Counted from the stretch's first letter, positions 1 to 64,000 are shown. The stretch is 64,000 nt of DNA from Candidatus Magasanikiibacteriota bacterium (GCA_017991415.1 JAGOQR010000001.1:109385-173384), one strand, 5' to 3'. Numbers and translations are program-made. Notes: generated from the letters alone by a model not told the origin.

Positions 1-263
1 AAAATCCCAATAAACGTCTGCGGTAAGCGCAAAACCATTTGGCACTTTCATGCCTTTGGAAGTTAGTTTGGCGTACATTTCACCAAGGGAAGCATTTTTT
101 CCACCAACTGATGGAATGTCTTTGATGGTTAAATCTTTAAACCAGCTAATATACATAAGAGAGGCTTTAAACGAAAATTTTAATTCGTATTCAGGCTAGT
201 AAATTATACCACGTTTATAGTATTTTGAAAAATATGCACATCACTCACACAAAACAGCTCTAT

Positions 264-2294
<2,031 letters not shown>

Positions 2295-2320
2295 CTAAAA
2301 TCTTGTTCAAACCTAATAAC

Positions 2321-3142: not shown

Positions 3143-3198
3143 AAAAAAACAAAAACCCTCCGAAAAGAAGGTCTTTGTTTTTCTAAAATATAGAAATC

Positions 3199-3633
3199 TT
3201 AGTCGGCAATTCCAGATGGACTGAGAGTAACTCCGCCACTGAGGCCGTTCATAGTAGTTTCCAAGGTAGCAGTTACACTATATGAGCTTGAAGCTGCAGT
3301 ATAGACGTAAGACTGTGTTCCAAGTGGGTCTGATGGAACTTGACCCATGTAAGGGTTAGCACACCCGGCTGTACCGAAACCAGAGGCATTAAGACAAGCG
3401 TAGTTGGTACTTCCTAAAGTAACGCCAGAACCGGTTGGATATGCGGTTTGATCGGTATAATAAAGTTCTAAAGCGGTTTGCAATTGTTTTAAATCTGAAA
3501 GACGTCTCGCATCGCGAGCTTTTTGTCTTGCATTTCCCAAAGCTACAACAGCCAAGGTTGACAATAAACCGATTATAGCTATTACTACCAACAACTCAAT
3601 TAAAGTAAAGCCTTTTGCATTCATTTTCTTCAT
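3199..3633 (-). CDS. Type IV pilin / pseudopilin
   Basis: N-terminal class III signal KGFTLIELLVVIAIIGLL (prepilin cleavage/methylation motif). 144 aa. Confidence 0.8.
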   Translation of the reverse strand: MKKMNAKGFTLIELLVVIAIIGLLSTLAVVALGNARQKARDARRLSDLKQLQTALELYYTDQTAYPTGSGVTLGSTNYACLNASGFGTAGCANPYMGQVPSDPLGTQSYVYTAASSSYSVTATLETTMNGLSGGVTLSPSGIAD

Positions 3634-3707
3634 ATTTTCACCCCCTTTCTATTATGTAACATAAAATTTTATAAATCAAAATAAAAACTCAAAATATTAT
3701 ACCACAA

Positions 3708-4091
3708 CTATAGCTTTAATAATTTTCTTACTTTATCCACAACCTCGGAAGGTTTGAAATGGGTTTTAATAAGATAATCAGCAGCTCCTTTTTCTAAACC
3801 GCGCTGCACATCGTCTTGTTGACCCAGATTAGTAAGTAAAATTATGGGGATATCCTTGCTTGCATTGTCGGATTTAATTGCTTCTAAAACTGAAAAACCA
3901 TCTAGTTTTGGCAACAAAATATCGAGCAAAACTAAATCTGGCATTTTTTTCTTAATGTCAGTTACCGCTTTCTCTCCATCGTTTGCCATACTTACTTTAA
4001 AACCTTCCATCTCAAATTTTTTCTGATAAATTTCTGCTAAAAAAAGATCGTCTTCGACAATTAATATATGAGTTTGCTTGCTTGAAGGCAT
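3708..4091 (-). CDS. Stand-alone response regulator receiver domain (CheY-like)
   Basis: ILIVEDD...DLVLLDILLP...K pattern of a REC domain. 127 aa, sits inside the pilus cluster (PilH-like position). Confidence 0.75.
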   Translation of the reverse strand: MPSSKQTHILIVEDDLFLAEIYQKKFEMEGFKVSMANDGEKAVTDIKKKMPDLVLLDILLPKLDGFSVLEAIKSDNASKDIPIILLTNLGQQDDVQRGLEKGAADYLIKTHFKPSEVVDKVRKLLKL

Positions 4092-4161
4092 ATAGCGCGA
4101 TTTATATTACCAATTCCTATCTATAAAATAGATATAAAAAAATATTAAATTATGTATATTA

Positions 4162-5301
4162 TTATACCATACTGCGTAAAGCCAAACCAATAGCGACAGA
4201 AAGTCTCGGACCGATTTGACGTAAGACTGGCTTCAAACCATCTTGATAAACAACCCGAGCCCAAGAATCTCCTACATAACATTTTATTCTAAACTTACCT
4301 TCTATATATTTAGCCAGATATGGCATTAGGGCTGTACCGCCAGTTAAAATTATTTTTTCTGGACGCTTGCCTTCGTTACCAGTTTGACGCAAATAGACCT
4401 CGAGACTTATTTCTATCTCTTTCAACATTGGATCTATGACTGGCATAAGAATATCGAGCCACTTCTGCTCGCTTACGTTATTATTATTGGCCGAAGGCAG
4501 AAAGTCAAATAGATCGTACTTAATTTTTTCTACCAAATCTGATTCCACCCCTAAAATATTTTGTAAAATTTTATCCATTTTATCTCCTCCAGACTCGATT
4601 GTCTGATGAGTAATAGGAGCGCCATGATCAATAATAAAAAAATTTGTTCTCTCTGAACCAATATCAATAATCATGGCCACCGCTTGATCGCGACCCATAA
4701 GACACCTGGTGAGAGCAGTTGATTCTGGCTCGAGCGCTTCCAAAGTCAAACCAGATCGAGAAAAAACTTTTGAATAAAATTCTATTAGTTTGTATGGAAC
4801 AGCATTTACAAGCACTCGTTGACTCTGGTCAGAAGACAGCCCAGTAAGCACTTGAAAATCAAGCGCCATCTCTTCGAGCGGTACTGGTAATAATTTTTTT
4901 ACTTCTGCTTTAATAAGATGGTCTAGCTCTTCTTTTTTTACGAGAGGTAATGTAACAACTGCGTGAAAAACCGAAGACACTGGCAGGCTCACCACCGCTG
5001 TTTTGGAAATAATTTTGGAAGCTTTGCAAAGACCTTTTATAATTCCACTATATTTTTCAATATTTTCATCTGTAAACTGATCGGTAACAGAGCTGACAGA
5101 TTTCTTGGGGTCCTGGCCTATAAGATTTGCTAGATTTTTATCTTCTCGTACCTGCAATTTATGAATATCTTGTTTCGCAGAAGTAAGACCGTATGAAAAC
5201 AAAACGGGCCGTTTTTTTTCTAGCCTTAATTCTACTAATTTGATACCACTAGACCCAACATCAATACCTAGATACGACTTTTGCTTTAAAAAACCGAACA
5301 T
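4162..5301 (-). CDS. pilM: Type IV pilus assembly ATPase-like protein PilM
   Basis: Actin-like fold start LGIDVGSSGIKLVEL. 379 aa, located in the pilus gene context. Confidence 0.7.
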   Translation of the reverse strand: MFGFLKQKSYLGIDVGSSGIKLVELRLEKKRPVLFSYGLTSAKQDIHKLQVREDKNLANLIGQDPKKSVSSVTDQFTDENIEKYSGIIKGLCKASKIISKTAVVSLPVSSVFHAVVTLPLVKKEELDHLIKAEVKKLLPVPLEEMALDFQVLTGLSSDQSQRVLVNAVPYKLIEFYSKVFSRSGLTLEALEPESTALTRCLMGRDQAVAMIIDIGSERTNFFIIDHGAPITHQTIESGGDKMDKILQNILGVESDLVEKIKYDLFDFLPSANNNNVSEQKWLDILMPVIDPMLKEIEISLEVYLRQTGNEGKRPEKIILTGGTALMPYLAKYIEGKFRIKCYVGDSWARVVYQDGLKPVLRQIGPRLSVAIGLALRSMV

Positions 5302-5434
5302 ACCAGCAGGATTATAAAAGTTACCGGCGAAAGATTAATTACATTATACCAAATAATAAGGCGTACGTGTATAGTCCATTTGATAACTGGGGATAAATAA
5401 GGTAAAATATTATATACATTTATTAGTTTATCTT

Positions 5435-9791: not shown

Positions 9792-10283
9792 ATGGCGTTT
9801 AAACCTCTCGAAGAAAAACCCCGCCCAGAAAGAACAGATACTGCCAAAGCTCCTCACCAAGAGCTTGATTTGCAATTAGAAAAAGAAGGTGACGATGAAA
9901 AAGAACAACAAAATAAAGAACAAAGAATAGCCCCCGAGACTACTGGCCCACAAAAACTAAAATCTATCCTCAAAAAAAGACCTGCCATGCCGCTACCGGT
10001 AAAAGACGAGGTAATTATTAAAATAGAAAAAATAATGGAAGAAAGTCTCAACGATTCGTACCAACGCCTATCCCCTGTAGCTAAACAAGAATTCAAATTA
10101 AAAGGTGAACAAACAGCCACTCAAATTCGAGAACTCCTCAAAAGCAGTCACATAAAAGTAAAAAAAATATTACGATTAATTTTTGATTGGCTTCGCATGC
10201 TTCCTGGCGTCAACCATTTCTTTTTAGAACAAGAGGCAAAAATAAAAACAGATCGAATTATCGCTTTAAAAAAGAAGGAATAA
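9792..10283 (+). CDS. Hypothetical charged (Lys/Glu-rich) protein
   Basis: 163 aa. Stop lies 3 nt before the start of the VirD4-like gene, so it is probably co-transcribed. Confidence 0.4.
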   Translation: MAFKPLEEKPRPERTDTAKAPHQELDLQLEKEGDDEKEQQNKEQRIAPETTGPQKLKSILKKRPAMPLPVKDEVIIKIEKIMEESLNDSYQRLSPVAKQEFKLKGEQTATQIRELLKSSHIKVKKILRLIFDWLRMLPGVNHFFLEQEAKIKTDRIIALKKKE

Positions 10284-17280: not shown

Positions 17281-17372
17281 AAAGAAAAACTTGAAATCGT
17301 CAAAAAGCGCGCTCACCTGGGCGAGGCGGGCGGAATTCCTCCCCAACCCCCTCCTTCCGCCCGCTATTCCGT
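17281..17372 (+). repeat. Left copy of a ~90-bp GC-rich inverted repeat pair (partner at 59896-59981)
   Basis: AAAGAAAAACTTGAAATCGT...GGCGGGCGGAATTCCTCCCCAACCCCCTCCTTCCGCCCGCTATTCCGT. Contains a 9-bp GC stem CGGGCGGAA/TTCCGCCCG. About 88% identical to the reverse complement of 59896-59981. Confidence 0.8.
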
Positions 17373-17410
17373 TAAATCCGTTCGAATTTTCGTATATTCA
17401 CTGAACCAAT

Positions 17411-51695: not shown

Positions 51696-51780
51696 AAATA
51701 AAAATAGCTCTATATTCTAGAGTTATTTTTATTTGCAGGCCTTGCAGGATAAGATTGAAACATTTTTTGCTTATTTGCAA
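51696..51780 (+). repeat. Array repeat copy H (terminator hairpin plus conserved box)
   Basis: AAAAATAGCTCTAtattcTAGAGTTATTTTTATTTGCAGGCCTTGCAGGATAAGATTGAAAC... matches the family consensus ...TTATTTTTATTTGCAGGCCTTGTGGGATGAGAGCGAAAC... Confidence 0.7.
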
Positions 51781-51781
51781 A

Positions 51782-53371
51782 TTACTGTTCCACGGTAAAG
51801 ATAACTGGCTCTGATCGAGTGCCGATATAAGTCGCAGGCCCAACTGGCATTACCGTAACCTCGTAGGCATGGCGGCCGCCAGGAGCAAAATCAACGAGCG
51901 GTACAAGAACGGACAAATCAATAGTGTCTTTGATATTCCACCATGGATCATTAATCGAACAAGTCATGCAGGATATCACTACTTGATAACGCGTAGCCGC
52001 GTCTGCCCGTGTCCACGCTATTCTAACTGCGCCATCTTTGCCCATAAAATTATCTCCGGGTACAGGGGCAGTGATGGTTGGTTGAGTATTAAGTACAGTG
52101 GTTGATTGTGAACCCGAAGAATCTATAGTGTATAGACGATAATCAGACCACGGCCCCCAAATTCCAGATAGCGAATAACCACGAGCTCGAGTGCGGCAGG
52201 TAGCATCATAACTAATTGCAAAATTCGCCGTACGCAACAAAATTTCTTCCGTAGTAATATCGGAAACAAGACTATACTGCGACAAATCGTTTGGGCGCGC
52301 ACATTCGGTAGTCACTTGATATTTAATAGCGCCCTGCACCCACCCCCAAGCAATAGTAACCATGCGATTAGAGTTAGCAAACACCTGTCCAGAAACAGGC
52401 AAATCAATTGTTGGGGCGACCACATTAATTACAGAAGTATCAACCGTAAATGGCACATATTCAGACCAATTACCAAGCACACCAAATTTATCAACTGCCC
52501 GGATTCGCATGCGGAAGGTACCATCGCTGCCTAAAAATAGACCAGTAAAAATATTGGTAGCGCCCTGATTAGTTTCAGCCGCTGACACGGAATACGGTCG
52601 GTCATAGGCAATCCAGCAATCTGGCGTTCTCCAATCTACACAACGGTAATGATTGGTTTCAATAATATATTTGTCTGCTCCTGGTACCGCCGTCCATACC
52701 GGATCTAAATCTCTTTCCATGCCAGTAACTGGTTTGACTACCTGATTGTTATATGGAGTTACAAAACGCGGCGCAGGCAATACCGCTGGTTGGATGGCCT
52801 GAGGAGGCGTCACGGGAACCGAGACTGGTATAGACGGTTTTATTGACACAGCTCCGGATGAATTGTCTGTAATTGGTTTTTTGGGATCAGCTATTGTTTT
52901 GCGCGTAGCCCGGGAAATGCCAGTAACACGAAGCTTAATGTATGTATCATTTTTAGCATCATAAATAGCAAAGACACCGTTGCGAACTGCGTTAAGAGCT
53001 GTGGTCTCATACCCGTTCGTACCGATTTTTGGAATTGCAGCCGTAAAATACGGCAAACGAATAATACTATTGCCTTTACCCGGCTCTATTTGGGCAATAC
53101 CTTTTTTATTACTTATGAAAAAAGTAGCTGCGGCTGGTCCCGTCGTTTTTCCTCTAAAAACATTTTGCCCAGCTTTAGTATTAGCACCATTATAAGTAAG
53201 AGTAATATTTTTAGAAATCTGATTGCCTGCTTCTCCGGAATTTAGATAATAGGTAAAGCTAACAGTGCCGCTATAAACATACGTTGCTGCTGCAGCTGCT
53301 TTTGCATTTGCAAATAAGCATACAACTGCTAGCACAGCTGTTACCCCCATCCACGCTCGTACTTTTTTCAT
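51782..53371 (-). CDS. Secreted protein with three fibronectin-III-like repeats
   Basis: Signal peptide. Repeats WTAVPGADKYIIE / IAWGWVQGAIKYQVT / IAWTRADAATRYQVVI. 529 aa. Confidence 0.5.
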   Translation of the reverse strand: MKKVRAWMGVTAVLAVVCLFANAKAAAAATYVYSGTVSFTYYLNSGEAGNQISKNITLTYNGANTKAGQNVFRGKTTGPAAATFFISNKKGIAQIEPGKGNSIIRLPYFTAAIPKIGTNGYETTALNAVRNGVFAIYDAKNDTYIKLRVTGISRATRKTIADPKKPITDNSSGAVSIKPSIPVSVPVTPPQAIQPAVLPAPRFVTPYNNQVVKPVTGMERDLDPVWTAVPGADKYIIETNHYRCVDWRTPDCWIAYDRPYSVSAAETNQGATNIFTGLFLGSDGTFRMRIRAVDKFGVLGNWSEYVPFTVDTSVINVVAPTIDLPVSGQVFANSNRMVTIAWGWVQGAIKYQVTTECARPNDLSQYSLVSDITTEEILLRTANFAISYDATCRTRARGYSLSGIWGPWSDYRLYTIDSSGSQSTTVLNTQPTITAPVPGDNFMGKDGAVRIAWTRADAATRYQVVISCMTCSINDPWWNIKDTIDLSVLVPLVDFAPGGRHAYEVTVMPVGPATYIGTRSEPVIFTVEQ

Positions 53372-53477
53372 ATAAATTGGTTATATAAACTATGGCTGCT
53401 ATAATAGCACGATTCAAAATTCTGAACAATTAATATAAATACTAAAAACTTGTCGTTGATACGATAGCTTAGCTTAC

Positions 53478-53530
53478 AAAAAATCACTTAGCAGGCATTG
53501 TGGGATGAGATAGGAACTTATTTGGCTAAG
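53478..53530 (+). repeat. Array repeat copy A (conserved 40-nt box only)
   Basis: GCAGGCATTGTGGGATGAGATAGGAACTTATTTGGCTAAG. The TAG of GGCTAAG is the stop codon of the 53526-53963 gene. Confidence 0.7.
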
Positions 53531-53963
53531 ATATAGGGTACAAAACATACCAAGGGCTATTCGGCAACTGCTTTCTAACTCCAGCTCTTACTCTATCTAT
53601 ACTAGGAAAATCATACCAAGGATCAACCCAACCACCCTTCACTCTTAACAAGTAATGACCGATAGGATACTTGGTATTTTTGACTATTAAGGTAATAGAG
53701 CCTTCAATTTTAGAAAATTTATCGGCTTCTTGTAGGTTTATTTTGTATCTTTTGTTTTGATTGAAAAACTTACTTTTATAATCTAGGTTGTGAGTTTTTA
53801 AATATTTAACAATATCAAAAATCTTTATACCTTTTTCAATGGTATAAAATTTACTCTCAAAATCTTTTTTAACCTCATCGTAAGATTTATTTAATAGATT
53901 AGCTAAACAAGCGATCCCGCAGCCATTTATATCTTTTTGATGTTGGGGTTTTATCGGAGCCAT
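53526..53963 (-). CDS. Papain-like cysteine peptidase domain protein (C39-like)
   Basis: QHQKDINGCGIACLANLL matches the catalytic Cys context of C39/bacteriocin-processing peptidase domains. 145 aa stand-alone. Confidence 0.45.
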   Translation of the reverse strand: MAPIKPQHQKDINGCGIACLANLLNKSYDEVKKDFESKFYTIEKGIKIFDIVKYLKTHNLDYKSKFFNQNKRYKINLQEADKFSKIEGSITLIVKNTKYPIGHYLLRVKGGWVDPWYDFPSIDRVRAGVRKQLPNSPWYVLYPIS

Positions 53964-53971
53964 ACAGGGAT

Positions 53972-54676
53972 TTAGGAAACTACTTTATAGATGATATGTA
54001 GGTAGGAATTCTTAAGTTTTTGTACCTTGTCTAAACTTAAGGTTTTAATATATTTTAAATCGCTGTCTTTGCGCAAAGAAAGTCCGTCAACTAAAGAAGG
54101 GGTGTCTTTGCCGCCTACTATACATGGAACCACTACCACGGACAGCCGGTCAATAAGTCCTTTTCTAAATAATTCAGCATTCATACTCCCGCCGGATTGT
54201 AGAGTAATTTTTTTCATTTTAAACTTTTCTTTAAGATCAATAAATAATCTTGTTAAATCAACCTTTTTTGAATGAAATACGACTTCTAAATTATTTAGGT
54301 TGCGCATCATAAATGCCGAATGCTGCTTATTGGTAGTAACCAATATTAACCGCTTCACCCATTTTGTTAAATACAAGACACCTTTATCGGTCAGATGTGG
54401 TTTATTATCTACAATAATAAAAGTGCAAGGTGATTTTATCTGCGGTTCTTTTTTAGTGTTAACACCGATCTTGGCCATTACCCGACCTGTGTTAAATGAA
54501 TTAATATCCGTCGTTTTCTCAATATCATAATACTGATACAAGCCCTCTTTTACTCCCTTCACCTTTTTTAGATCAATATCAAAATCCCTGGAATCAATAT
54601 CTCCGGTTGATATTTTACCGTCTGCTGACATTAACATATACAGCGTTGTTTTGGGCGTATTTTTTGGCATGTACAA
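53972..54676 (-). CDS. Dihydrofolate reductase-like / RibD C-terminal domain family protein
   Basis: YMLMSADGKISTGD and C-terminal SGG...GLIDRL pattern. The track start is TTG; a likely ATG lies at 54670. Confidence 0.55.
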   Translation of the reverse strand: MYMPKNTPKTTLYMLMSADGKISTGDIDSRDFDIDLKKVKGVKEGLYQYYDIEKTTDINSFNTGRVMAKIGVNTKKEPQIKSPCTFIIVDNKPHLTDKGVLYLTKWVKRLILVTTNKQHSAFMMRNLNNLEVVFHSKKVDLTRLFIDLKEKFKMKKITLQSGGSMNAELFRKGLIDRLSVVVVPCIVGGKDTPSLVDGLSLRKDSDLKYIKTLSLDKVQKLKNSYLHIIYKVVS

Positions 54677-54751
54677 AAATTAATAATTAGTACATATACA
54701 ATGCCATTTATATTTTATATTGCAAGCCCGTTTATCCACATGGTTCTAGAT

Positions 54752-54826
54752 AAGAATAACCGCTTGGTTAAGCGACTATTTTTCTGTGCAGGCCTTGTGG
54801 GATGAGAGCGAAACTTATTTGGTTAA
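54752..54826 (+). repeat. Array repeat copy B
   Basis: AATAACCGCTTGGTTAAGCGACTATTTTTCTGTGCAGGCCTTGTGGGATGAGAGCGAAACTTATTTGGTTAA. Confidence 0.75.
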
Positions 54827-54842
54827 AAATGAAGATTAAAAT

Positions 54843-55556
54843 TTATTGCATAATCCTCTGAATCTCATTTTTTAGATGTTCGGCTGACCAACCAATCAAT
54901 AACCTTCCCTGCTCTTTGTCCACTACCCATTTTGGGTGCCTATCATGAATTCCATCTTTACTAAAATCTTTAAGCGGGTGCTTATCATCCCAATCATACC
55001 CAATATCTTTCTTAGGATAGTTAGCTGGCGGTACAGTTACTAGGTCCTCATCAATAGCCAGCACCATAGAAGTTTCAGTATTCCCTGCATGATCATCTAC
55101 CGGCCCATTAATCAACTCCATTGTTTTCTGCAAGACTGGCTCTGGATCAAGAGTTATATAATGTAATTTTACTGATCCTAACTCTGCGGTATATTTTTCA
55201 ATAAAACGATCAATCGTGCCTAGATTACCTCCATGCCAGGATATAAAAATAATGTTACTTGCATAATCCTTGAGCGACATAGAAATATCTCGAAGCATAA
55301 GCATTAGGGTTTCTTTTTCAACCCATACAGTGCCAGGAAAACCAATATGTTCTTTGGAACAAGTAATCTCTAGTGTTGGTAAGAAAATTGCTTCAGGGCA
55401 TTCTTTAATGGCTTTTTCCAACATAGCATTCTGGCAATAAGTATCTGTACCGATTGGTAAAAAAGGGCCATGCTGTTCGGTGGCACCCATTGGTAAAACA
55501 AATGTATATTTCTTTTCTTGATTGAAATCAGTTGTTTTGAGTTCTTTTAACAACAT
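54843..55556 (-). CDS. Creatininase-family amidohydrolase
   Basis: LPMGATEQHGPFLPIGTDT signature plus metal-binding His/Asp/Glu. 237 aa. Confidence 0.75.
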   Translation of the reverse strand: MLLKELKTTDFNQEKKYTFVLPMGATEQHGPFLPIGTDTYCQNAMLEKAIKECPEAIFLPTLEITCSKEHIGFPGTVWVEKETLMLMLRDISMSLKDYASNIIFISWHGGNLGTIDRFIEKYTAELGSVKLHYITLDPEPVLQKTMELINGPVDDHAGNTETSMVLAIDEDLVTVPPANYPKKDIGYDWDDKHPLKDFSKDGIHDRHPKWVVDKEQGRLLIGWSAEHLKNEIQRIMQ

Positions 55557-55584
55557 ACTAATTAAAATAATTATTGAGCCATGG

Positions 55585-55717
55585 TTATTCTATCTTTTCA
55601 GCTAATGGTAGTCAATTCGGTTCTAAATTTAGAAAAGGATATAAAAATAACCGCCTGATTAAGCGATTATTTTATTTGCAGGCGTTGTGGGATGAGAGCG
55701 AAACTTATTTGGCTAAG
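55585..55717 (+). repeat. Array repeat copy C (full: promoter, hairpin and box)
   Basis: On the minus strand, TTGACT (55610-55615) N17 TAGAAT (55587-55592) sits ~30 nt upstream of the 54843-55556 start. Then hairpin AAAAATAACCGCCTGATTAAGCGATTATTTT and box GCAGGCGTTGTGGGATGAGAGCGAAACTTATTTGGCTAAG, which ends 18 nt from the stop of the 55735-56337 gene. Confidence 0.8.
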
Positions 55718-55734
55718 AATGAAGAACAATTTTT

Positions 55735-56337
55735 CTAACTTACCCTTACAAAACCTAGTCGCTTTCGATATATCGAAAAAATCAACGCTACATTAGCTAT
55801 TAGTAGATATACTTGAAATGCCGAATTTACAATATCCCATTTTGGTATAGAAGGTAAAACTAACAATACACTGATAAGACTGGCAATAAAAAGATAACCT
55901 GATTCAGTTTCTGGATATTTCCAGGCTTTAACAATTGTAGGTAGAGTGGCAAGCCCATCACCTAATGCGGCAAATAAGATAGCCAAAGCTGGAGAATCAA
56001 TAACGAGCCAGATAATTAAGGCAATAATCGAACAAACTCCGCATAAAGAATCGAACAATGTTAATTTCCAATAACTATTTTTATTTACAAAAGAAACAAT
56101 AAATACGATAAGCGGAATAAAACCTGCAATAAAAATTCTAGATGTTGCCCATAAATCAGCTTGGGCCGAAAAAGCCGCAAATGCTCCGACGAGCGATGCA
56201 AATGCCCATAAACTCCACGAGATACGATTTGGTTTTGTCTTTCCTTTAAGCGTATCTTTAATATAACTGACCGAACCTGAGATGCTAATAACTGCACTTA
56301 CAACAACCAACCAATGAACAAAGGAAATACCAAACAT
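55735..56337 (-). CDS. Integral membrane protein
   Basis: 200 aa with about 6 TM helices. Confidence 0.45.
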   Translation of the reverse strand: MFGISFVHWLVVVSAVISISGSVSYIKDTLKGKTKPNRISWSLWAFASLVGAFAAFSAQADLWATSRIFIAGFIPLIVFIVSFVNKNSYWKLTLFDSLCGVCSIIALIIWLVIDSPALAILFAALGDGLATLPTIVKAWKYPETESGYLFIASLISVLLVLPSIPKWDIVNSAFQVYLLIANVALIFSIYRKRLGFVRVS

Positions 56338-56354
56338 AACATGTAAATAGGAAT

Positions 56355-56491
56355 GATACCTATTCTATCTTTTTTGCTAACCTTGGTCAATTTGGTTCCA
56401 AAGTAATAAAAGGATATAAAAATAATCACTTGGTTAGGCGGCTATTTTTGTTTGCTCCATTTGTGGGACGAGGTTAGAACTTGTTTGGCTA
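56355..56491 (+). repeat. Array repeat copy D (full, more diverged)
   Basis: Minus-strand promoter TTGACC-N17-TAGAAT, then hairpin AAAAATAATCACTTGGTTAGGCGGCTATTTTT and box GCTCCATTTGTGGGACGAGGTTAGAACTTGTTTGGCTAA. The TAG within the box is the stop codon of the 56489-57067 gene. Confidence 0.75.
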
Positions 56492-57067
56492 AATCTTAAT
56501 AAGATTAATATAATTGGCCAACTCTTTAAGCGCGATAGGTAAATCAATAAAGCCATCGGCTTCGGTAATATGTCCTGCATTATGTAGTGTTATTATTCTT
56601 GACCCAAGTTCACTAAACTTTTCTTTGTTTTTGCTGAATGCACCATACGGGTCATTGTCTGAAATAACTAATACAGATTGAGGTAAAAGTTGTTTTACTT
56701 GGGCTATATTAATTGGAGTTGTTAGCCATGGTTTTGCTATCTCTTTCACTTTGTCATTTTCAAGATTCTCTAAATCAAACCAACCTGCCACAAAAACAGC
56801 ACCTCCAACAGGCGCATTAACGGTTTCCAGATAACGAAGAATAGTTTGGCAGCCAATACTGTGCCCAACAAAGTAAGTATCTTTATCTGGTTTACCGACT
56901 AAACTGGCAAGGTAAGTAACCCACCGTTCAATGACTGGAGTATTGGTATCTGGCATCTCAGGAATAAAAACTAGATGCCCTAATTTTTCCAACTCGGCTT
57001 TTAACGAAGGCAGCCAATCTTTTTCTGGACTTCCTTCCCAACCGTGGATAATAAAAATTCTTTTCAT
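56489..57067 (-). CDS. Alpha/beta hydrolase (RBBP9/YdeN-like serine hydrolase family)
   Basis: IFIIHGWEGSPEKDW...VGHSIGC nucleophile elbow. 192 aa. Lies 6 nt downstream of the NUDIX gene, so probably in an operon with it. Confidence 0.6.
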   Translation of the reverse strand: MKRIFIIHGWEGSPEKDWLPSLKAELEKLGHLVFIPEMPDTNTPVIERWVTYLASLVGKPDKDTYFVGHSIGCQTILRYLETVNAPVGGAVFVAGWFDLENLENDKVKEIAKPWLTTPINIAQVKQLLPQSVLVISDNDPYGAFSKNKEKFSELGSRIITLHNAGHITEADGFIDLPIALKELANYINLIKI

Positions 57068-57073
57068 ATTAAT

Positions 57074-57628
57074 TTAAGCTCTGCCACTTCCATTTAAATA
57101 GTTCCATGCCTTCAAAATAAGCACACAGCTTTGGCCATGAGTAATCTTACTGTCCATAACCATTTGAACTGCTTTAGCTAACGGCAATTTAATGTGGGTA
57201 ATAATTTCAGTGCCTTCAAAGGCGGTATTAGTAAATGAGAGGCCTTTAGCTAGAAACAAATTTGCAGGTGAAAAGACAACACTGGTAAACGGATCCATTT
57301 TTCCGAGTTTTACCCAATTCTTTGCTATGCAGCCTAACTCTTCTTGCAATTCTCGTTTAGCTGCTTTAAGAATAGACTCGCCTTCATCGATAGCACCGCT
57401 AAATACCTCAACACTATTTTTACCGATTGCGTATTTGAATTCTTTGGTTAAGTATATATTTCCTTCTTCATCCATAGGCAGGATTGATACCCCAGGAACC
57501 ATCTCTACAATACCAAAGATTCCTGGATTACCATCTGGTCGTACTACCTGGTCTTCATGGACACTTATCCATTTATTTTTATATTTTATAGTGCTGCTTT
57601 TGATTTTCCATGGGCCATGCTTTTTCAT
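57074..57628 (-). CDS. NUDIX hydrolase
   Basis: Nudix box GAIDEGESILKAAKRELQEELG. 184 aa. Confidence 0.8.
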   Translation of the reverse strand: MKKHGPWKIKSSTIKYKNKWISVHEDQVVRPDGNPGIFGIVEMVPGVSILPMDEEGNIYLTKEFKYAIGKNSVEVFSGAIDEGESILKAAKRELQEELGCIAKNWVKLGKMDPFTSVVFSPANLFLAKGLSFTNTAFEGTEIITHIKLPLAKAVQMVMDSKITHGQSCVLILKAWNYLNGSGRA

Positions 57629-57660
57629 ACGAATAGGATTGAATTATTAACTTGTTTATT

Positions 57661-57789
57661 CTATCGTTTCGGCTAAGTATAGTCAATTTGGTTCGAATCC
57701 TATTGCCCCGTACAAAAATAACCGCTTGGTTAAACGATTATTTTTATTTGCAGGCCTTGTGGGATGAGATTGGAACGTATTTGGCTAAC
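57661..57789 (+). repeat. Array repeat copy E (full)
   Basis: Minus-strand TTGACT-N17-TAGAAT upstream of the NUDIX start, then hairpin AAAAATAACCGCTTGGTTAAACGATTATTTTTAT and box GCAGGCCTTGTGGGATGAGATTGGAACGTATTTGGCTAAC. Flanked by GGCTAAG (57671) and GGCTAAC (57783). Confidence 0.8.
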
Positions 57790-57858
57790 CTATAACAATC
57801 ACCAATTTAACTTTCCTTCATAATCTGTTAGAATACGTAAGAAAATAATAAACTTACT

Positions 57859-58716
57859 ATGTGGTTTCTTTTGTCTTTAGGCTCCGCTTTTTTTGATTCA
57901 CTTAAGGATGTAACCGCCAAAATTGTCTCAAAGGAAATTGACGCTTACACAGTCGCGTGGGCTAATCGTTTCTTTGGTCTTATTTTTATTCTTCCGGTCA
58001 TGCTCTTTAACATCCCGAATCATCTTGGCATAGAATTTTGGAAAGCTCTAGCTGTAGTTGGCGTACTTAATTCCATTAATTCTGTTCTGTACATCAAAGC
58101 TCTCAAGGATACACCCCTATCAATTGTTACCCCTATTACTTCTTTAACGCCCATTACTGTGTTACTTTTTTCATCCATCCTTGCCTCAGAAACACCTTCA
58201 CTCGTTGGCTTTTTAGGAATTATTATAGCGGTCATAGGCACCTATGTGTTACAAATCAGTCAGCGCCATACTGGTTTTTTAAAACCGCTCACCTCTCTAT
58301 GGACAAATGTTGGACAGCGGTATGTATTTATTGTTGTGATATTATGGGGCATCACATCAGTATTTGATAAAATTGCCATACAGCACTCTAACCCACTCTT
58401 CTATTTAGGCGCTGCTAATATTGTTTATACACTCGCCCTATTTCCATTTGTTATTTTTAAACCAGGACGTTTACAAATCGCAATTACAAATTATAAAAAA
58501 TTTCTTCCTGTTGGATTCTTTTATGCTGTTTCTACTGGACTGCAGTTTTTAGCTTTACCGTTTACTTTAGTATCATACGTTTTATCAATAAAACGTGCAT
58601 CGAGTGTATTTGGAGTAATATGGGGTAAATTCTTTTTCAACGAAACGAATTTAAGAGAACGAATGTTTGGATCATTAATAATAATTGCTGGCGTTATATT
58701 AATCATATTTGCTTAA
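57859..58716 (+). CDS. EamA/DMT-family transporter
   Basis: 285 aa with 10 TM helices in the duplicated EamA pattern. It is the only plus-strand gene in the array. Confidence 0.7.
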   Translation: MWFLLSLGSAFFDSLKDVTAKIVSKEIDAYTVAWANRFFGLIFILPVMLFNIPNHLGIEFWKALAVVGVLNSINSVLYIKALKDTPLSIVTPITSLTPITVLLFSSILASETPSLVGFLGIIIAVIGTYVLQISQRHTGFLKPLTSLWTNVGQRYVFIVVILWGITSVFDKIAIQHSNPLFYLGAANIVYTLALFPFVIFKPGRLQIAITNYKKFLPVGFFYAVSTGLQFLALPFTLVSYVLSIKRASSVFGVIWGKFFFNETNLRERMFGSLIIIAGVILIIFA

Positions 58717-58790
58717 AAAAATAACCGCTTGGTTGAGCGATTATTTTTGTTAGCAGGCCTTGTGGGATGAGATCGGAACTTATTTAGCTA
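58716..58790 (+). repeat. Array repeat copy F
   Basis: AAAAAAATAACCGCTTGGTTGAGCGATTATTTTTGTTAGCAGGCCTTGTGGGATGAGATCGGAACTTATTTAGCTAA. Begins at the EamA stop codon and acts as a convergent terminator. Confidence 0.75.
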
Positions 58791-58814
58791 AAAACATTGA
58801 TTAATTCTTACAAT

Positions 58815-59636
58815 TTATACTTCAAACTCTAAAATAAGTGGTAGATGATCTGAAATCGGCACATCAGGAACACTAAAATTAACGGGCTTAATACCACTAG
58901 AGACAAAAGCATAGTCTGCAAACTCTTGCCAACCATTAGGCCCAACACCATAGTGGGGATATAATTTTTTAAAAAGACTTCCACGGGTAGTTTTTATAGA
59001 AAATTCTTTAATCAAATTACGAAGACCTACTTTCTCAAACATGGCAATACTTTCCGTGTTTGGCAATAAGTTAAAGTCCCCAGTGATGATTCCTTCACCA
59101 TTCTCTCTTGTTATAAAATCTATAATCTTTTTCGATTGAATAAGGCGCTCATTTGTATCTAACTTATTCCCTGGCTCAGAGGTACCGTGCACATTACAAA
59201 CTGTAATGAGTTTATTATTAACAGCTAGCTGAAGATATTGCAGATTACAAGGAAGGGTAGAAAAATCTTTATAATCAAAGGAGTTTAGTTCTTTGAAAAT
59301 AAAAAACTCTCCGCTTTTTTTAATAGAATAATCTTTTTTAATAAAAACTGCCAAACCTGAATTAATTCCCGGGGCTTTAATAAGGGTTTGATCAAAATTT
59401 TCTTGAGCCAAACCGAAAAATCCTTGATGTTTATTTAAAATCTTTTGCACCTGTTTAAATAAATCTGCTCGATACCCTTGATTTTCAGAAATATTTTTAT
59501 TATTATCTAACATTTCCTGTAAACAAAATATATCAATAGTGTCGGCATTTACTCTAATAAAGTCTATGAGCGGCTCAAATATCTTACCGCCGTAGGTATT
59601 TAACGATATAATCTTCATACTTTTAAAACTTGACAT
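58815..59636 (-). CDS. Endonuclease/exonuclease/phosphatase (EEP) family protein
   Basis: N-terminal ...DIFCLQE (catalytic Glu), ...TGDFN..., C-terminal SDHLP. 273 aa. An alternative start Met lies at 59618. Confidence 0.6.
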   Translation of the reverse strand: MSSFKSMKIISLNTYGGKIFEPLIDFIRVNADTIDIFCLQEMLDNNKNISENQGYRADLFKQVQKILNKHQGFFGLAQENFDQTLIKAPGINSGLAVFIKKDYSIKKSGEFFIFKELNSFDYKDFSTLPCNLQYLQLAVNNKLITVCNVHGTSEPGNKLDTNERLIQSKKIIDFITRENGEGIITGDFNLLPNTESIAMFEKVGLRNLIKEFSIKTTRGSLFKKLYPHYGVGPNGWQEFADYAFVSSGIKPVNFSVPDVPISDHLPLILEFEV

Positions 59637-59649
59637 TGATTACGAATCT

Positions 59650-59760
59650 TATTCTATCTTTGTTAACCTACTTTAGTCAATAATCAGTTTTTTTCACAAC
59701 TATGCGCCCCTATAAAAAATAACCGCTTGGTTAAGCGGCTATTTTGTTTGCAGCGGGGAT
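59650..59760 (+). repeat. Array repeat copy G (promoter and hairpin, box absent)
   Basis: Minus-strand TTGACT-N18-TAGAAT upstream of the EEP gene, then hairpin AAAAAATAACCGCTTGGTTAAGCGGCTATTTTGTTTGCAG. The sequence then diverges. Confidence 0.7.
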
Positions 59761-59895
59761 ACGAAAAATTACGAGGGGAATTTATATTGGAAATGAGTGA
59801 GTAAAATGGATTAGCGGCAGTTGCGCCAAGTTTACTTGGTTGCAACCTGACGATGAGACATTTTCGAGCGAATGACAATATATGGTTTACCTATA

Positions 59896-59981
59896 CGGAA
59901 TAGGACGGGCGGAAGGAGGGGTTGGGGGAGGAATTCCGCCCGCCCACCGGCGCACTTTTTACGATTTCAAGTTTTTCTTTG
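59896..59981 (-). repeat. Right copy of the ~90-bp GC-rich inverted repeat pair (partner at 17281-17372)
   Basis: Reverse complement reads AAAGAAAAACTTGAAATCGTAAAAAGTGCGCCGGTGGGCGGGCGGAATTCCTCCCCCAACCCCTCCTTCCGCCCGTCCTATTCCGT. Lies 14 nt downstream of the CHAP gene stop. Confidence 0.8.
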
Positions 59982-59993
59982 ACGGCAAATTCT

Positions 59994-60776
59994 TTAAGAA
60001 AAATCTATAAATTTAGCCTGATATTTGTCTTTCCACTGGCTTTTGGGTAGAACGCGTTCAGAGTATATCCCTGGAGGTGGCCAATTTACCTCGGAAACTT
60101 TTATACTACCATCCTGATAAACTTCTTCTACAAAGGCAACATGCCCAACCGCAGGATTTTTTAAACTTCCAACAAACGACATGGCGCAACCAGCCTTTGG
60201 TTCATCTAAAACTTTGTATTGTCCACTTCTTTGAAAAATTCCTGCCCACAATCCACCATTACGGGGTCTTTCTTTTGGCCAATTAATAGCAATGCCCATT
60301 TGCTGAACTTTATAATGAACATACTCTACACACTGCAGATCATCTCTTCGCGCTCCTCCGCCAAACTCATCATTAATAATCTTACGCAATTTTATACTAT
60401 TTGCGTCGGTTGCTAAATTTTTTTCGTGATTTTGGAAAACCGGTAAGACATCCTGGGCAATTTCTTTTTTCTGTAAGTTTTCCAACGCTACCGGAGAATT
60501 TTCCTCTAAATAAAATTTAGAAACCCAACCAGTGTTGCCCTCTGAAACCACCTTAACCCAATCCCCACTCTCTTCTACGACTTCAACTTTAGTTCTAAAA
60601 ACAAGTTTTGCGATTATATTATCATTATTAACTTTATCTAGGCTAGAACGCATACGCAACCCATCGGAAGCGCTAACAAATAACTCCTTAGTTGAAAATT
60701 GTGGAGTAATATCCGCTACCTGTGTTTTTTCCTCAGAATCAAATGTTTGGCCGCATTTAGGACATGTTATAGGCAT
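59994..60776 (-). CDS. CHAP-domain amidase/peptidase with N-terminal zinc ribbon and SH3-like segment
   Basis: CPKCGQTF zinc ribbon, GWVSKFYL segment, and CHAP Cys/His context (DDLQCVEYVHY...GHVAFVEEV). 260 aa. Confidence 0.55.
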   Translation of the reverse strand: MPITCPKCGQTFDSEEKTQVADITPQFSTKELFVSASDGLRMRSSLDKVNNDNIIAKLVFRTKVEVVEESGDWVKVVSEGNTGWVSKFYLEENSPVALENLQKKEIAQDVLPVFQNHEKNLATDANSIKLRKIINDEFGGGARRDDLQCVEYVHYKVQQMGIAINWPKERPRNGGLWAGIFQRSGQYKVLDEPKAGCAMSFVGSLKNPAVGHVAFVEEVYQDGSIKVSEVNWPPPGIYSERVLPKSQWKDKYQAKFIDFS

Positions 60777-60877
60777 AAAATTATTTTAATTCATTCTTGT
60801 AATTATTACTGGTGAGATTGTACCACGGTGAAATATTACTACATTTCACCTTTGACAGCAAATTATTTGTTATTTAG

Positions 60878-63577
60878 TTATAAAGCGAACTTTGCTCTTA
60901 ACAGCTGCACATCTTTATTATTAAATTTCTTTTCCAAATTATCTAATATTTTCTTTTCTGTTTCTGGTGTCCAGTAAATTTTTAGCTTTTCTTTTGCACG
61001 AGTAATAGCAGTATAAAATATATTATGCGTAATCATCTCCTCTGTTTCATCGGTAATAACAACCTTGACTGAGTTATATTCTAAACCTTGAGCTTTATGC
61101 ATTGAGACAGCATAGGCTATCTGAAAAGGAACTACCGCTCTTGAAGAATCTTCGTCCTCATCTGTACTTTCTAGCTTGTTGACAAAAAATCTAATCACTG
61201 ATTTACCATTATCAGACTCTCCCAACAACTCTAATTCATGTCCATAAGTATCTAGTTCATTTATAGACTCATCGATTTCAATATCAAATTGTACCTTACC
61301 ATCAAGAATTTCTATACCAAGTATTTTTCCCTTAAGATTATTATGAATTAAAGGCTTAAATCTATTGGACTCATTGAATAGTATTGGATCATTAACTTTG
61401 TAAGTGTGGATGCCCCATTGTTTTGGTTCGTTTCCATTATTTCCTTGTAAAAATCTGTTGATATTATTTATTCCATACAGACCATCGTAGTTTAAACATA
61501 AAATTATTTCATCATCTTCCGAATGCTCAAATATTGAGTCGCTTAACGGCGTATTATAATTATTGTTTGTGATATGCTCTAGAATATCACCTTCGATATT
61601 TCTCACCTTATTCCACAAGGTAAGTAATTTTTCATTTTTAGTGCGATATGGTTTTGTCAACTCAAATACTGAAGTTTTTTGAAAAAATGACTCTGCTATT
61701 CCAAACCAGTTTCCAAAAAGTATAGATTCGATTTGGAAAATATCACCCACTAAAACCAATAATTTAAAAGATGCTTTTTTTAACACATTAAGCATATCTG
61801 AATTACTGACAGTACTACACTCATCAATAACCAACAAATCACACTCGGTGTTGCTATTATTTTTAGACAAAAAACTGGTTACTGTTTGAAATGTAGAATT
61901 TGTAACACCCACTCTTCTTTTTAAATTATTAACTGCTGGGTTGGTGTTGGCTAAATAAAGCTTCTTCTGATTTTTATGAAAATTAGAGATATGGGTTATT
62001 AATTTTGTTTTTCCAGTTCCTGCAGAACCATATATCATCGCTACACGTGAGCTTTCAAATATTTGCTTCATGATCTTCTTTTTTTCTTCACAATCAACAC
62101 CGTGGTCATCTGATTGTAGCCACTTATTAACAGAATTTGAATAATTTTTAAAGCCTGAAGAGGATAATTCTTTTAATTTCTCAATAATGTGAACGGTATC
62201 TTCTTCATAACCTTTTATGTAAATATGATCTTTATAATTTTCAAGTTTACGGTTACCGTGTGTATAGTATAATTTTTTATTATACACACCAATTAAACTC
62301 TCAACATCTTCAAAGCTAGTTATATTTTTTAAGGGAGTGTATAACTGCCCTTTTTGTTCAGTATTATTTTTTATAAATCTTGCAAACAATTCGTGCTTAT
62401 GACTTGTCGGATCTATACAATCAACTAAATCACGAAGTTTAGGGTTGTGTCCTATTGGTGAGGTATTAAACGGCATGTCGTCAAATGGTTTACACCCAAA
62501 TTTTAGATTTAAGTTTGATAATAAAGCACAAGTTTCATGGTTATATTGTAATTTGAGAACTTTATTATTGAGCGTGTATAATAAATATCTAACCATGTTA
62601 CATCCTGCCAAATCACTTTTTATTAATTCACGGCATTTATCTAAAACATTAAAAAAATGTGCCCCTTTGACTTTCGTTGTCACGACATTTTTTTTAAAAC
62701 GTTGGTAATATTCATCGGAAAATTCAACTACTTCTACCAAATTCAAACAAGTTTTAGTTAAAAGCGACATCAATTCCTTAGACTCTATTGAATCGGCTGA
62801 TATTTTTGGATGTTCGCCAAATATATCGGCAAGATGGTTAAGTTCGCATGGACGAATTGATACATTCCAACTATCGATAATTTTAATCGGCATCTTTTTG
62901 CCTAAAACCTCTATCACATCATCACTCGTGGCGAGTTTTACGGCATAGTTTGGCAATATATCTAATTTTGTAAAGGCGATGACTCTATCAAACTTACTTA
63001 CATTATCAATGGCTGTTGTGAAAGTTATTTCATAATATACTTCATTGTTAACAAAAAATGGTTTAACTTTTCTAATATAGTACCTGTCATCATAAGCACT
63101 CTTTTTTCTTTTTGATATTGGCTCGTTAATTTTTTCGGCTATCTTTTCATAATACTCCTTAAGTGCAGAATCAACTGTGATAGGAAAATTGTTGATATTT
63201 TCTAAAACATCAAAGTTATATCTATTCTTTAAAAAAGATTTTATTTTAAGTAAATACTCATAGTATTTTAGCATTAGTCTTTCTGATTTTTCTTCATCTG
63301 GAAGATAATGAGAAAGAGTTTGTTGAAGAAATTTGTGAAATTTACTTAAAAACCTTAAATCAGCTCTTGATGAAACATAGAGCTTTGCTTTATTTTGATA
63401 AATAACGTAACTATAATCATCTTCGCCAGATGCTTTCACCGCAACAGCTTCAACAAAGGTTCTCAGCTTATCTAAAATGTTTTGTGACAAAAATCCTCTT
63501 TCGTCTGCTTTTAATTTATTGATAAGTTTGCATATCGCATCGTCAGAAATACGAATTTGTTCATCTACCTTACTCAT
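60878..63577 (-). CDS. Superfamily I helicase (RecD/UvrD-like) with large N-terminal domain of unknown function
   Basis: Walker A IYGSAGTGKT, Walker B LLVIDECS, C-terminal VSMHKAQGLEYNSVKVV (motif VI region). The track ORF extends to 63682, but the overlap with the HNH gene suggests a start at the Met at ~63577. Confidence 0.65.
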   Translation of the reverse strand: MSKVDEQIRISDDAICKLINKLKADERGFLSQNILDKLRTFVEAVAVKASGEDDYSYVIYQNKAKLYVSSRADLRFLSKFHKFLQQTLSHYLPDEEKSERLMLKYYEYLLKIKSFLKNRYNFDVLENINNFPITVDSALKEYYEKIAEKINEPISKRKKSAYDDRYYIRKVKPFFVNNEVYYEITFTTAIDNVSKFDRVIAFTKLDILPNYAVKLATSDDVIEVLGKKMPIKIIDSWNVSIRPCELNHLADIFGEHPKISADSIESKELMSLLTKTCLNLVEVVEFSDEYYQRFKKNVVTTKVKGAHFFNVLDKCRELIKSDLAGCNMVRYLLYTLNNKVLKLQYNHETCALLSNLNLKFGCKPFDDMPFNTSPIGHNPKLRDLVDCIDPTSHKHELFARFIKNNTEQKGQLYTPLKNITSFEDVESLIGVYNKKLYYTHGNRKLENYKDHIYIKGYEEDTVHIIEKLKELSSSGFKNYSNSVNKWLQSDDHGVDCEEKKKIMKQIFESSRVAMIYGSAGTGKTKLITHISNFHKNQKKLYLANTNPAVNNLKRRVGVTNSTFQTVTSFLSKNNSNTECDLLVIDECSTVSNSDMLNVLKKASFKLLVLVGDIFQIESILFGNWFGIAESFFQKTSVFELTKPYRTKNEKLLTLWNKVRNIEGDILEHITNNNYNTPLSDSIFEHSEDDEIILCLNYDGLYGINNINRFLQGNNGNEPKQWGIHTYKVNDPILFNESNRFKPLIHNNLKGKILGIEILDGKVQFDIEIDESINELDTYGHELELLGESDNGKSVIRFFVNKLESTDEDEDSSRAVVPFQIAYAVSMHKAQGLEYNSVKVVITDETEEMITHNIFYTAITRAKEKLKIYWTPETEKKILDNLEKKFNNKDVQLLRAKFAL

Positions 63578-63581
63578 ATTA

Positions 63582-63998
63582 TTATCGATTCCCCTTTGCT
63601 CGATTGTGAGTTTTACAGAGCATCTGGCAGTTCTTGACTGAAGTCGCTCCACCCTTGCTCCATGCCGCGACATGGTCAGCATCCATATCGCTCAAACTCC
63701 AAATTTTTTCCTTATTAGCATCATGCCCAAGAGCGCAAAGCGGACAGTTTGATTCTTTTTTCTTTTCAGCTTTAGTAGTCTGTTCTTTGTATACTGATTT
63801 TTTAATTGCGTCATCAAAAACTCTAACATCAAGCAACTTTGTATCAGCAGAACCTCCTAAGATAAATTCAAAAATACCTTTGCGATTTTTGACATATGGA
63901 TCTCCGTACAGTTTTTGTACTTCTTCCGAAACCTTTTTTGGATTGTAGGATTTTTTATGGTAAGCCTCATACAACCGTCCCCACTCTAGTCCGCACAT
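63582..63998 (-). CDS. HNH endonuclease
   Basis: CPLCALGH...DADHVAAWSKGG...NCQMLCKTHNRAKG. May extend beyond the window edge at the N-terminus. Confidence 0.7.
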   Translation of the reverse strand: MCGLEWGRLYEAYHKKSYNPKKVSEEVQKLYGDPYVKNRKGIFEFILGGSADTKLLDVRVFDDAIKKSVYKEQTTKAEKKKESNCPLCALGHDANKEKIWSLSDMDADHVAAWSKGGATSVKNCQMLCKTHNRAKGNR

Positions 63999-64000
63999 CT

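Follow-up and report, generated by a model that had tools for sequence, protein, structure and literature searches.

The PvuII- and EcoRV-type C.M.R operons are examples of type II restriction-modification (R-M) systems controlled by a C protein. In GmrSD and BrxU, an N-terminal DUF262 NTPase domain is combined with a C-terminal DUF1524 His-Me finger nuclease, and the enzyme acts alone on modified DNA. The PDCs are a set of 145 phage defense candidates, drawn from genes that lie inside type I R-M, BREX, and DISARM systems (Payne et al. 2024, bioRxiv 10.1101/2024.01.29.577857). Here, we analyzed a locus at positions 59994 to 63998 of a 64,000-nt stretch of DNA, the window, from Candidatus Magasanikiibacteriota bacterium (GCA_017991415.1 JAGOQR010000001.1:109385-173384). 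A preliminary description of this DNA had treated its three genes, for an HNH nuclease, a helicase, and a CHAP amidase, as one group, with the nuclease and the helicase paired in a module for antiphage defense or a mobile element. Our analysis instead favors, with a probability of about 0.75, a defense island that holds two independent immune modules, a type II R-M system and a helicase of the candidate family PDC-S53, together with a resident CHAP gene.

A look-up of the exact proteins returned two contigs identical to the window. One of these, L001, overlaps window positions 58902 to 64000 exactly and extends to window-equivalent position 66722, that is, 2.7 kb beyond the window. The three open reading frames (ORFs) of the preliminary description are real and all lie on the minus strand, at 63582 to 63998, 60878 to 63577, and 59994 to 60776. 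The predicted start of the helicase 4 nt after the nuclease stop also held, with the TAA stop codon of the HNH ORF at 63582 to 63584 and the helicase ATG at 63577. The longest helicase ORF (60878 to 63682) would encode 934 amino acids (aa), but since all of 27 aligned homologues begin at the Met equivalent to the ATG at 63577, we take the protein to be 899 aa long.

The HNH endonuclease had been described as a 138-aa protein. Its HNH domain was recovered (Pfam, 3.7e-7), but it is not a separate gene, as the ORF begins 2 nt from the window edge and the same frame encodes 389 aa on L001. Thus, the minus-strand segment at 63582 to 64000 is the 3' end, the last 138 to 139 codons, of a restriction endonuclease gene that spans L001 1972 to 3141 (window-equivalent 64751 to 63582). 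The complete protein consists of an N-terminal GmrSD_N domain (DUF262, with a DGQQR motif; Pfam 2.5e-20) and the C-terminal HNH domain. The fragment in the window aligns to positions 253 to 371 of the 372 positions of the PADLOC model REase_II PDLC03418, and the full-length protein matches positions 8 to 371 of this model (4.7e-79).

The genes found on L001 upstream of the endonuclease gene, on its coding strand, encode an EcoRI_methylase-family methyltransferase, a 77-aa protein, and a 68-aa HTH_3 C protein, with a tRNA-Trp gene beyond them. The methyltransferase (378 aa, with an NPPF motif; Pfam EcoRI_methylase 1.5e-129, PADLOC MTase_II 1.4e-116) is encoded on the same strand as the endonuclease, with a 4-nt gap between the two genes, and the C protein matches the PADLOC Control_protein model at 2.1e-18. 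The PADLOC models therefore cover a complete type II R-M system of control protein, MTase_II, and REase_II. The C gene is preceded, at a distance of 26 nt, by a tandem pair of 18-bp palindromes (ATTGTA-N6-TACAAG and ATTGTA-N6-TACAAT; L001 320 to 355, window-equivalent 66368 to 66403). We take this to be the layout expected of a C-box, and the pair is probably the C-box operator. Judged by its domains and its neighbors, the nuclease of the preliminary description is the restriction subunit in a type II R-M operon of the conventional, C-controlled kind. By analogy with its families, such a system would methylate host DNA and cut unmethylated incoming DNA, with the C protein setting the timing. 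Avoidance of palindromes in the window gave no indication of the specificity, as GAATTC occurred 18 times against 18.1 expected and CAATTG was also at expectation.

This operon shares with known C-controlled type II systems the C protein, the EcoRI-family methyltransferase, the endonuclease on the same strand, and the tandem palindromes upstream of the C gene. It differs from them in the DUF262 (ParB-like NTPase, DGQQR) plus HNH architecture of its endonuclease and in having a membrane protein gene between C and M. The latter is the 77-aa ORF (L001 594 to 827, window-equivalent 65896 to 66129), which has a C-terminal transmembrane helix, matches no family, and is not present in an otherwise similar operon on a groundwater metagenome contig, L038. 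Fusions of DUF262 to a nuclease are better known from the modification-dependent type IV enzymes GmrSD, BrxU, and SspE. We rejected a GmrSD/BrxU-like type IV enzyme because the C-terminal domain is HNH rather than DUF1524 and a cognate methyltransferase and C protein are present.

The helicase is encoded on the minus strand at 60878 to 63577 and is a stand-alone protein of superfamily 1B (SF1B). Its residues 1 to 896 match positions 1 to 893 of the 900 positions of the PADLOC model PDC-S53 (PDLC05035), with a score of 1308.1 bits and an E value of 0, while other defense models (PDC-S68, type IV RecD, GajB, and MkoA) gave weak matches to the motor only. The PADLOC-model search thus agrees with the earlier suggestion of a defense function, in that it returned a complete type II R-M system and the candidate PDC-S53. 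The name PDC-S53 was found in no paper of the library searched, nor was a fold for its N-terminal half, and two studies in which other PDCs were tested leave it out. A word-filtered search yielded more than 3,700 homologues of about 900 aa. The best 120 of these, also about 900 aa, are 62 to 78% identical to the helicase; their sources are Patescibacteria, Nanoarchaeota, Clostridium, and Virgibacillus.

The C-terminal half had been described as a RecD/UvrD-like helicase, and both the family and the structure comparisons agree with this. Pfam matches over residues ~500 to 870 are to AAA_30 (7.5e-21), AAA_19, Viral_helicase1, and UvrD_C_2 (3.7e-12), and SLFN-g3_helicase also matches (4e-9). The motor motifs are intact in this protein and invariant in the alignment (Walker A GSAGTGKT, Walker B IDECS, GD..Q, HKAQGLE, and TAITRA). 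Foldseek placed the two-RecA fold of the motor closest in the PDB to RecD2 (3e1s, 7e-12), followed by RecD, Pif1, and Dda. By these criteria, residues ~500 to 899 (60881 to 62080, minus strand) are an SF1B motor of the RecD2/Pif1/Dda type, which are 5'-3' single-stranded DNA (ssDNA) translocases.

The N-terminal ~500 aa, which the preliminary description could not assign, indeed match no Pfam family. In an AlphaFold model of the helicase (pLDDT, 89.7), this half is divided into three parts, a HEPN-like bundle followed by an OB-fold-like barrel and then by more helices. Residues ~1 to 150 (63128 to 63577, minus strand) are predicted to have the four-helix up-down HEPN fold, and residues ~160 to 240 (62858 to 63100, minus strand) a five-stranded, OB-fold-like beta-barrel. 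Residues ~241 to 500 (62078 to 62857, minus strand) are modeled as mainly helical and contain conserved positions (IRPCE at 241 to 245, F365, P369, and H377), with no Pfam match and no significant PDB match. A Foldseek search of the N-terminal domain against the PDB gave nothing at an E value of <1e-3; the best match was Dna2 (5eaw, E value of 0.05), followed by RPA70N and LEF-3. At the sequence level, residues 1 to 156 gave noise when compared to HEPN and PrrC in a Pfam scan of 30 members at an E value of ≤1 and in a PDB profile search at an E value of ≤10.

Within the HEPN-like bundle, the conserved residues are R39, E43 (89%), H81, S89-H90-Y91 (H90, 98%), R100, K104, and Y105; R39 is invariant and is followed by N, T, D, or H at position 40. 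The canonical HEPN motif Rx4-6H is not found in this helicase, whose position 44 is Ala (window positions 63446 to 63448). Among 63 family members, 23 carry a HEPN-like R-N-x-x-x-H at residues 39 to 44, and PDC-S53 may consist of some lineages with the motif and others without it. Residues 1 to 480 also served as the query of a full-library HMMER search, which gave 821 clusters at 50% identity. Since the nonfragments among them are proteins of ~900 aa with the domain at the N terminus, the N-terminal domain appears to be always fused to the motor.

The third gene (59994 to 60776, minus strand) encodes a 260-aa protein without a signal peptide. Of the three parts reported for it earlier, the CHAP domain (Pfam, 7e-14) and the SH3-like segment (SH3_3, 4e-8) were recovered, but the zinc ribbon was not. 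The protein has a single C5-x2-C8 pair, kept in close relatives only, and more distant homologues have hydrophobic N termini, so a zinc ribbon with four ligands is not present. In 12 CHAP homologues, the catalytic Cys149 is nearly invariant (Ser in one) and His212 is invariant. Orthologues with 79 to 92% identity were found only in Patescibacteria. We considered a phage endolysin and rejected it, as the protein has no relative in IMG/VR and no PADLOC match.

The CHAP gene is separated from the helicase gene by 101 nt (60777 to 60877, minus strand), and this upstream region contains a short hairpin and an extended -10-like sequence, TGGTACAAT. Part of it (L001 5855 to 5899) aligns with 87% identity to positions 8879 to 8923 of L020, a Magasanikbacteria metagenome-assembled genome (MAG), where it also lies upstream of the orthologous CHAP gene (83% identity). 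In L020, the genes upstream of CHAP encode an HTH protein, a 315-aa protein, a LexA-fused Eco57I-like methyltransferase, and a DUF3644 protein. In a related MAG, L018 (CHAP, 85% identity), the order is Ymh, an EcoRI-type methyltransferase (42%), a DUF262-HNH protein (35%), and CHAP, with 46 nt between the endonuclease and CHAP genes and no helicase; CHAP there is also beside ImmA-like and other element-type genes. From these comparisons, we infer that the CHAP gene, which encodes a lineage-specific peptidoglycan hydrolase, has a promoter region of its own and is the conserved flank of a hotspot for the exchange of defense cargo, not a partner of the helicase.

The island is ~6.6 kb long, contains six genes, and lies between tRNA-Trp and a cassette-like array. 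Its GC content is 33.9%, compared to 39.9% for window positions 1 to 51700 (range of 37.6 to 43.0% in 6.5-kb windows), and the values for single genes are 30.7% for the helicase, 39.3% for the endonuclease, and 38.7% for CHAP. On a composite of the window and L001, the island is bracketed by GC-rich inverted repeats of 66 nt with 91% identity, at 59896 to 59961 and at window-equivalent 66599 to 66534 (L001 ~124 to 189). The array-boundary position given in the preliminary description was confirmed, with a 39-nt inverted-repeat arm at 59906 to 59944 and the last repeat of the array at 59680 to 59745. The repeat core, CGGGCGGAAGGAGGGGTTGGGGGAGGAATTCCGCCCGCC, ends in a T-run and is also found at window positions 17295 to 17380 (core at 17332 to 17358), which makes three copies in 67 kb. 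The pairing of the copies at 17.3 and 59.9 kb that had been noted before is therefore not unique, as the latter also pairs with the copy just beyond the window. We rejected the inverted repeat as a stable hairpin or terminator, because its z-scores in RNA folding, -1.3 to 0, showed no advantage over shuffled sequences.

The tRNA gene lies ~315 nt further upstream on L001, on the minus strand (L001 1 to 65, window-equivalent 66658 to 66722; Rfam, 44.8 bits). Its anticodon loop, CUCCAAA, identifies it as tRNA-Trp(CCA), and it is just outside the island with its 3' end towards it. Integration of the island into this tRNA gene was rejected, because the window contains no direct repeat of the tRNA 3' end. 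The Rfam search returned tRNAs only.

A repeat frame is also found in L020, where the inverted repeats are 118 nt long and 97% identical (4561 to 4678 and 9809 to 9926). At the far end of the frame, L001 188 to 259 matches L020 4680 to 4750 (87%), and the cargo between the two frame ends is unrelated. The genes outside the repeats are not syntenic between L001 and L020, and the 66-nt repeat is not in L018. The simplest reading of these sequence comparisons is that the CHAP gene and the repeats would be the fixed frame of a hotspot in which defense cargo turns over. The helicase gene would then, again on the simplest reading, be a compositionally foreign addition inserted between the endonuclease stop codon and the CHAP upstream region. 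In L020, we also observed 100% identical inverted segments (2994 to 3098 versus 4488 to 4564 and 4702 to 4728) that link the interior of a large serine recombinase gene with the region just outside the left repeat; these may be an invertible segment or an assembly artifact.

The same frame could be explained if the whole repeat-bracketed 6.6-kb unit, CHAP included, were a mobile element with exchangeable defense cargo, in which CHAP would serve a function of the element itself, such as wall lysis for transfer or an abortive-lysis effector. This would account for the identical arrangement in L020 (left repeat plus 72 nt, cargo, 45 nt plus CHAP, right repeat) around different cargo, for the nonsyntenic outer flanks and the adjacent large serine recombinase there, and for a CHAP protein that lacks a signal peptide and in L018 is beside ImmA-like and element-type genes. 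However, no recombinase gene is found within the unit or over the 2.7 kb of L001 past the window edge, the GC content of CHAP matches that of the genome, L018 lacks the repeats, and the third repeat copy at 17.3 kb suggests a dispersed repeat. The CHAP protein also lacks a PADLOC match and an IMG/VR relative. We therefore regard a mobile unit of this kind as unlikely, while giving it real weight.

A second alternative is one cooperating defense system, made up of the nuclease, the helicase, and perhaps also CHAP, in which the helicase feeds or targets DNA to the nuclease. Two-gene nuclease-helicase systems such as Gabija and Hachiman are known, and the 4-nt gap and shared strand would fit such a system. 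We compared 92 other loci of this helicase, from genome, metagenome, phage, and plasmid sources, by clustering their neighboring ORFs all-against-all. No neighbor family was present in more than 10 of the 92 loci. The commonest were HsdS (10 loci), HsdR (9), large serine recombinase (8), HsdM (7), Dcm (5), RhuM (4), and TnpV (4). Type I R-M subunits were found in 15 loci, with HsdR plus HsdS or HsdM nearby in 6. In a Peregrinibacteria genome, the helicase gene is between hsdS and hsdR, and at one other locus it is downstream of GajA/GajB. In Clostridium beijerinckii it lies inside an integrase-bounded element, and in a nanoarchaeon it is beside Fic, DUF2779, Mrr, and an NgoFVII-type R-M system. 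At 90 of the 92 loci, there is no DUF262-HNH, EcoRI-type methyltransferase, or CHAP gene nearby. In a tblastn search of the L001 proteins against the fetched helicase loci, the R-M system was found in L038 only and CHAP in none.

On L038 (positions 1 to 5360), a divergent operon repeats the order C-M-R(DUF262-HNH)-helicase with a 5-nt gap, and the identities are 51% for M, 37% for R, and 60% for the helicase. This order favors a cooperating system, but the nearest relative of the L038 helicase (L069, 88%) lacks this R-M system, as do the loci whose helicases are most similar to the one studied here (P0002, L024, and P0005, 75 to 78%). Either the C-M-R-helicase order has more than one origin or its flanks are exchanged rapidly. 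Further points against cooperation are the cognate methyltransferase and the C protein that accompany the nuclease, its full-length match to a type II endonuclease model, the order in L018, where M and R are followed by CHAP without a helicase, and the different GC contents of the helicase and endonuclease genes. For these reasons, the nuclease-helicase module of the preliminary description, with or without CHAP, was not supported, and the conserved upstream region and near-genomic GC content of CHAP also argue against a single unit. The distribution fits a family that is generally found within R-M operons or at their tail and that has no dedicated partnership, and one cooperating system is improbable.

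Another possibility is that the helicase serves replication or recombination, as a Dda/RecD-like enzyme belonging to a prophage, a plasmid, or an integrative element, and that the locus is a degraded replication module. Depositors have annotated phage copies as "Dda-like" or "RecD-like helicase," copies occur on small plasmids beside rep genes, and the motor folds like RecD2, Pif1, and Dda. Full-length copies were found in 2 of 50,697 phage records, 6 of 72,556 plasmids, and ~60 cases among IMG/VR contigs. In Terrisporobacter phage TPDSL_ph1, however, the gene is beside a repressor gene, and the genes for polymerase, SSB, and exonuclease are on the other strand. Of 37 copies on IMG/VR contigs of 30 kb or more, 15 lay no more than 3 kb from a contig end, where 5.2 would be expected, and 18 lay no more than 5 kb from one; in 17 of these 18, the end was downstream of the gene. 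This bias marks an accessory ("moron") position, not the position of a replication module. The family is thus enriched at the ends of prophage contigs, and it is absent from virulent phages and embedded in type I R-M operons. Inspection of the sequence beyond position 64000, up to window-equivalent 66722, revealed no integrase, phage, structural, or replication genes, and there are none in the island. A replication module, a possibility raised in the preliminary description, is therefore quite improbable. A housekeeping RecD2/PcrA-type repair helicase, the other such possibility, can be dismissed as extremely improbable, because the best NCBIfam match, RecD2 TIGR01448 (3e-33), has a score of 114.8 bits, far below the cut-off of 500, and spans only residues 401 to 882, in the motor, the gene has 30.7% GC against a background of ~40% and no conserved synteny, and its 62 to 78% identity across candidate phyla radiation (CPR) bacteria, Nanoarchaeota, Clostridium, and Virgibacillus with unrelated neighborhoods points to horizontal transfer.

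Several observations weigh against a defense island of two independent modules and a resident CHAP gene. In each of the three genomes examined, CHAP adjoins defense cargo, and it could be part of a mobile unit. The inverted repeats fold no better than shuffled sequence, and, given the third copy at 17.3 kb, they may be dispersed repeats and not the ends of an element. The order of genes on L038 leaves room for a functional link between the helicase and this type of R-M system. The defense role of PDC-S53, a candidate family, is drawn from genomic context. Finally, the predicted HEPN similarity is at the level of the fold, without a sequence link in Pfam or the PDB, and the His at position 44 that occurs in 23 of 63 family members is Ala in this helicase.

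The cassette-like array next to the island (51723 to 59760) consists of eight repeats of 50 to 150 nt between single, functionally unrelated genes, with repeats starting at ~51723, 53479, 54717, 55586, 56361, 57657, 58717, and 59680. Its genes include those for an EEP nuclease/phosphatase, EamA, NUDIX, a serine hydrolase, creatininase, and RibD_C. Each repeat contains a terminator-like hairpin, AATAACCGCTT-GGTT-AAGCGATTATT, with A and T runs on its flanks, and ends beside a TATTCTATC box at each gene start. We rejected an integron, as there is no integrase among ten ORFs at 41 to 51.5 kb and the hairpin, with its 11-bp stem and 4-nt loop, is terminator-like and not attC-like. The EEP-family gene (58815 to 59636) is the first array cassette beside the island, and a 36% identical homologue lies ~550 nt downstream of another PDC-S53 helicase (L049 3416 to 4174; L050 9252 to 10091), which may be a coincidence or a recurrent neighborhood.

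The gene order and the modeled domains suggest how the helicase might act. Appended 4 nt behind the endonuclease gene, it is probably cotranscribed with it. In a first step, the OB-fold and the 5'-3' SF1B motor would engage phage ssDNA or replication intermediates; in a second step, the HEPN-like bundle would be licensed to cleave RNA and thereby abort the infection. We put forward this specific two-step mechanism, from ssDNA sensing to abortive infection by a HEPN-like RNase, as a tentative proposal that has less than an even chance of being correct. It has precedents in PrrC/RloC and DARNA and, as far as architecture goes, in the group III Schlafen proteins. Alternatively, the bundle could be regulatory and the motor itself could strip or unwind phage replication complexes. 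A bolder version, which we consider doubtful, is that PDC-S53 would be a one-protein "second-strike" sensor-effector that rides in R-M operons, acts as a noncanonical HEPN-like RNase (R39/E43/H90/R100/Y105) in abortive infection, and has spread horizontally, at 60 to 78% identity, from CPR bacteria and Nanoarchaeota to Firmicutes prophages. Its trigger would be phage ssDNA or replication intermediates or the failure of the neighboring R-M system.

As a whole, the locus is an ordinary small defense island whose parts fall into cataloged families. PDC-S53, however, is a widespread and unusually well conserved candidate family, and the model offers a first concrete hypothesis for its N-terminal half, with residues to mutate. 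A defense hotspot framed by repeats and a CHAP gene is also of interest in CPR bacteria, which have tiny genomes and a little-studied immune repertoire. Compared to PDC-S53 as cataloged, this copy is the same ~900-aa single gene, with an end-to-end model match and a position in or beside R-M or other defense systems. We found no differences at the family level; this copy follows a type II rather than a type I R-M system and is in a CPR genome.

N-terminal nuclease-type regions joined to a C-terminal SF1 helicase that binds ssDNA are found in the group III Schlafen proteins (SLFN11/13) and in Dna2. Foldseek matched the helicase to SLFN11 (7zep) at 8.8e-4. This likeness is limited to the motor, as the N-terminal regions differ, with an SLFN core or a PD-(D/E)xK nuclease in those proteins and a predicted HEPN-like bundle and OB-fold in PDC-S53. 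A ssDNA-activated HEPN tRNase has been described in DARNA (PD-T7-3) (bioRxiv 10.64898/2026.02.22.705581). DARNA differs in having a canonical R117-x4-H122 motif and a Pds5-like C-terminal domain, with no helicase and no OB-fold, and it has no sequence relationship to PDC-S53. In PrrC and RloC, anticodon nucleases that are embedded in type I R-M systems, an NTPase module and a HEPN-like bundle are in one polypeptide, as in the model of PDC-S53, and PDC-S53 recurs between hsdS/hsdM and hsdR. In contrast to PrrC and RloC, the NTPase of PDC-S53 is an SF1B helicase and not an ABC ATPase, the domain order is reversed, and there is no detectable sequence similarity. The anticodon-nuclease triad of PrrC is R320-x3-E324...H356 (PMC1484252), and R39-x3-E43...H90 of PDC-S53 resembles it as a pattern match only. 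If the second-strike proposal were true, PDC-S53 would be a prokaryotic counterpart of PrrC/RloC and, in its architecture, of the Schlafen-type RNase-helicase restriction factors.

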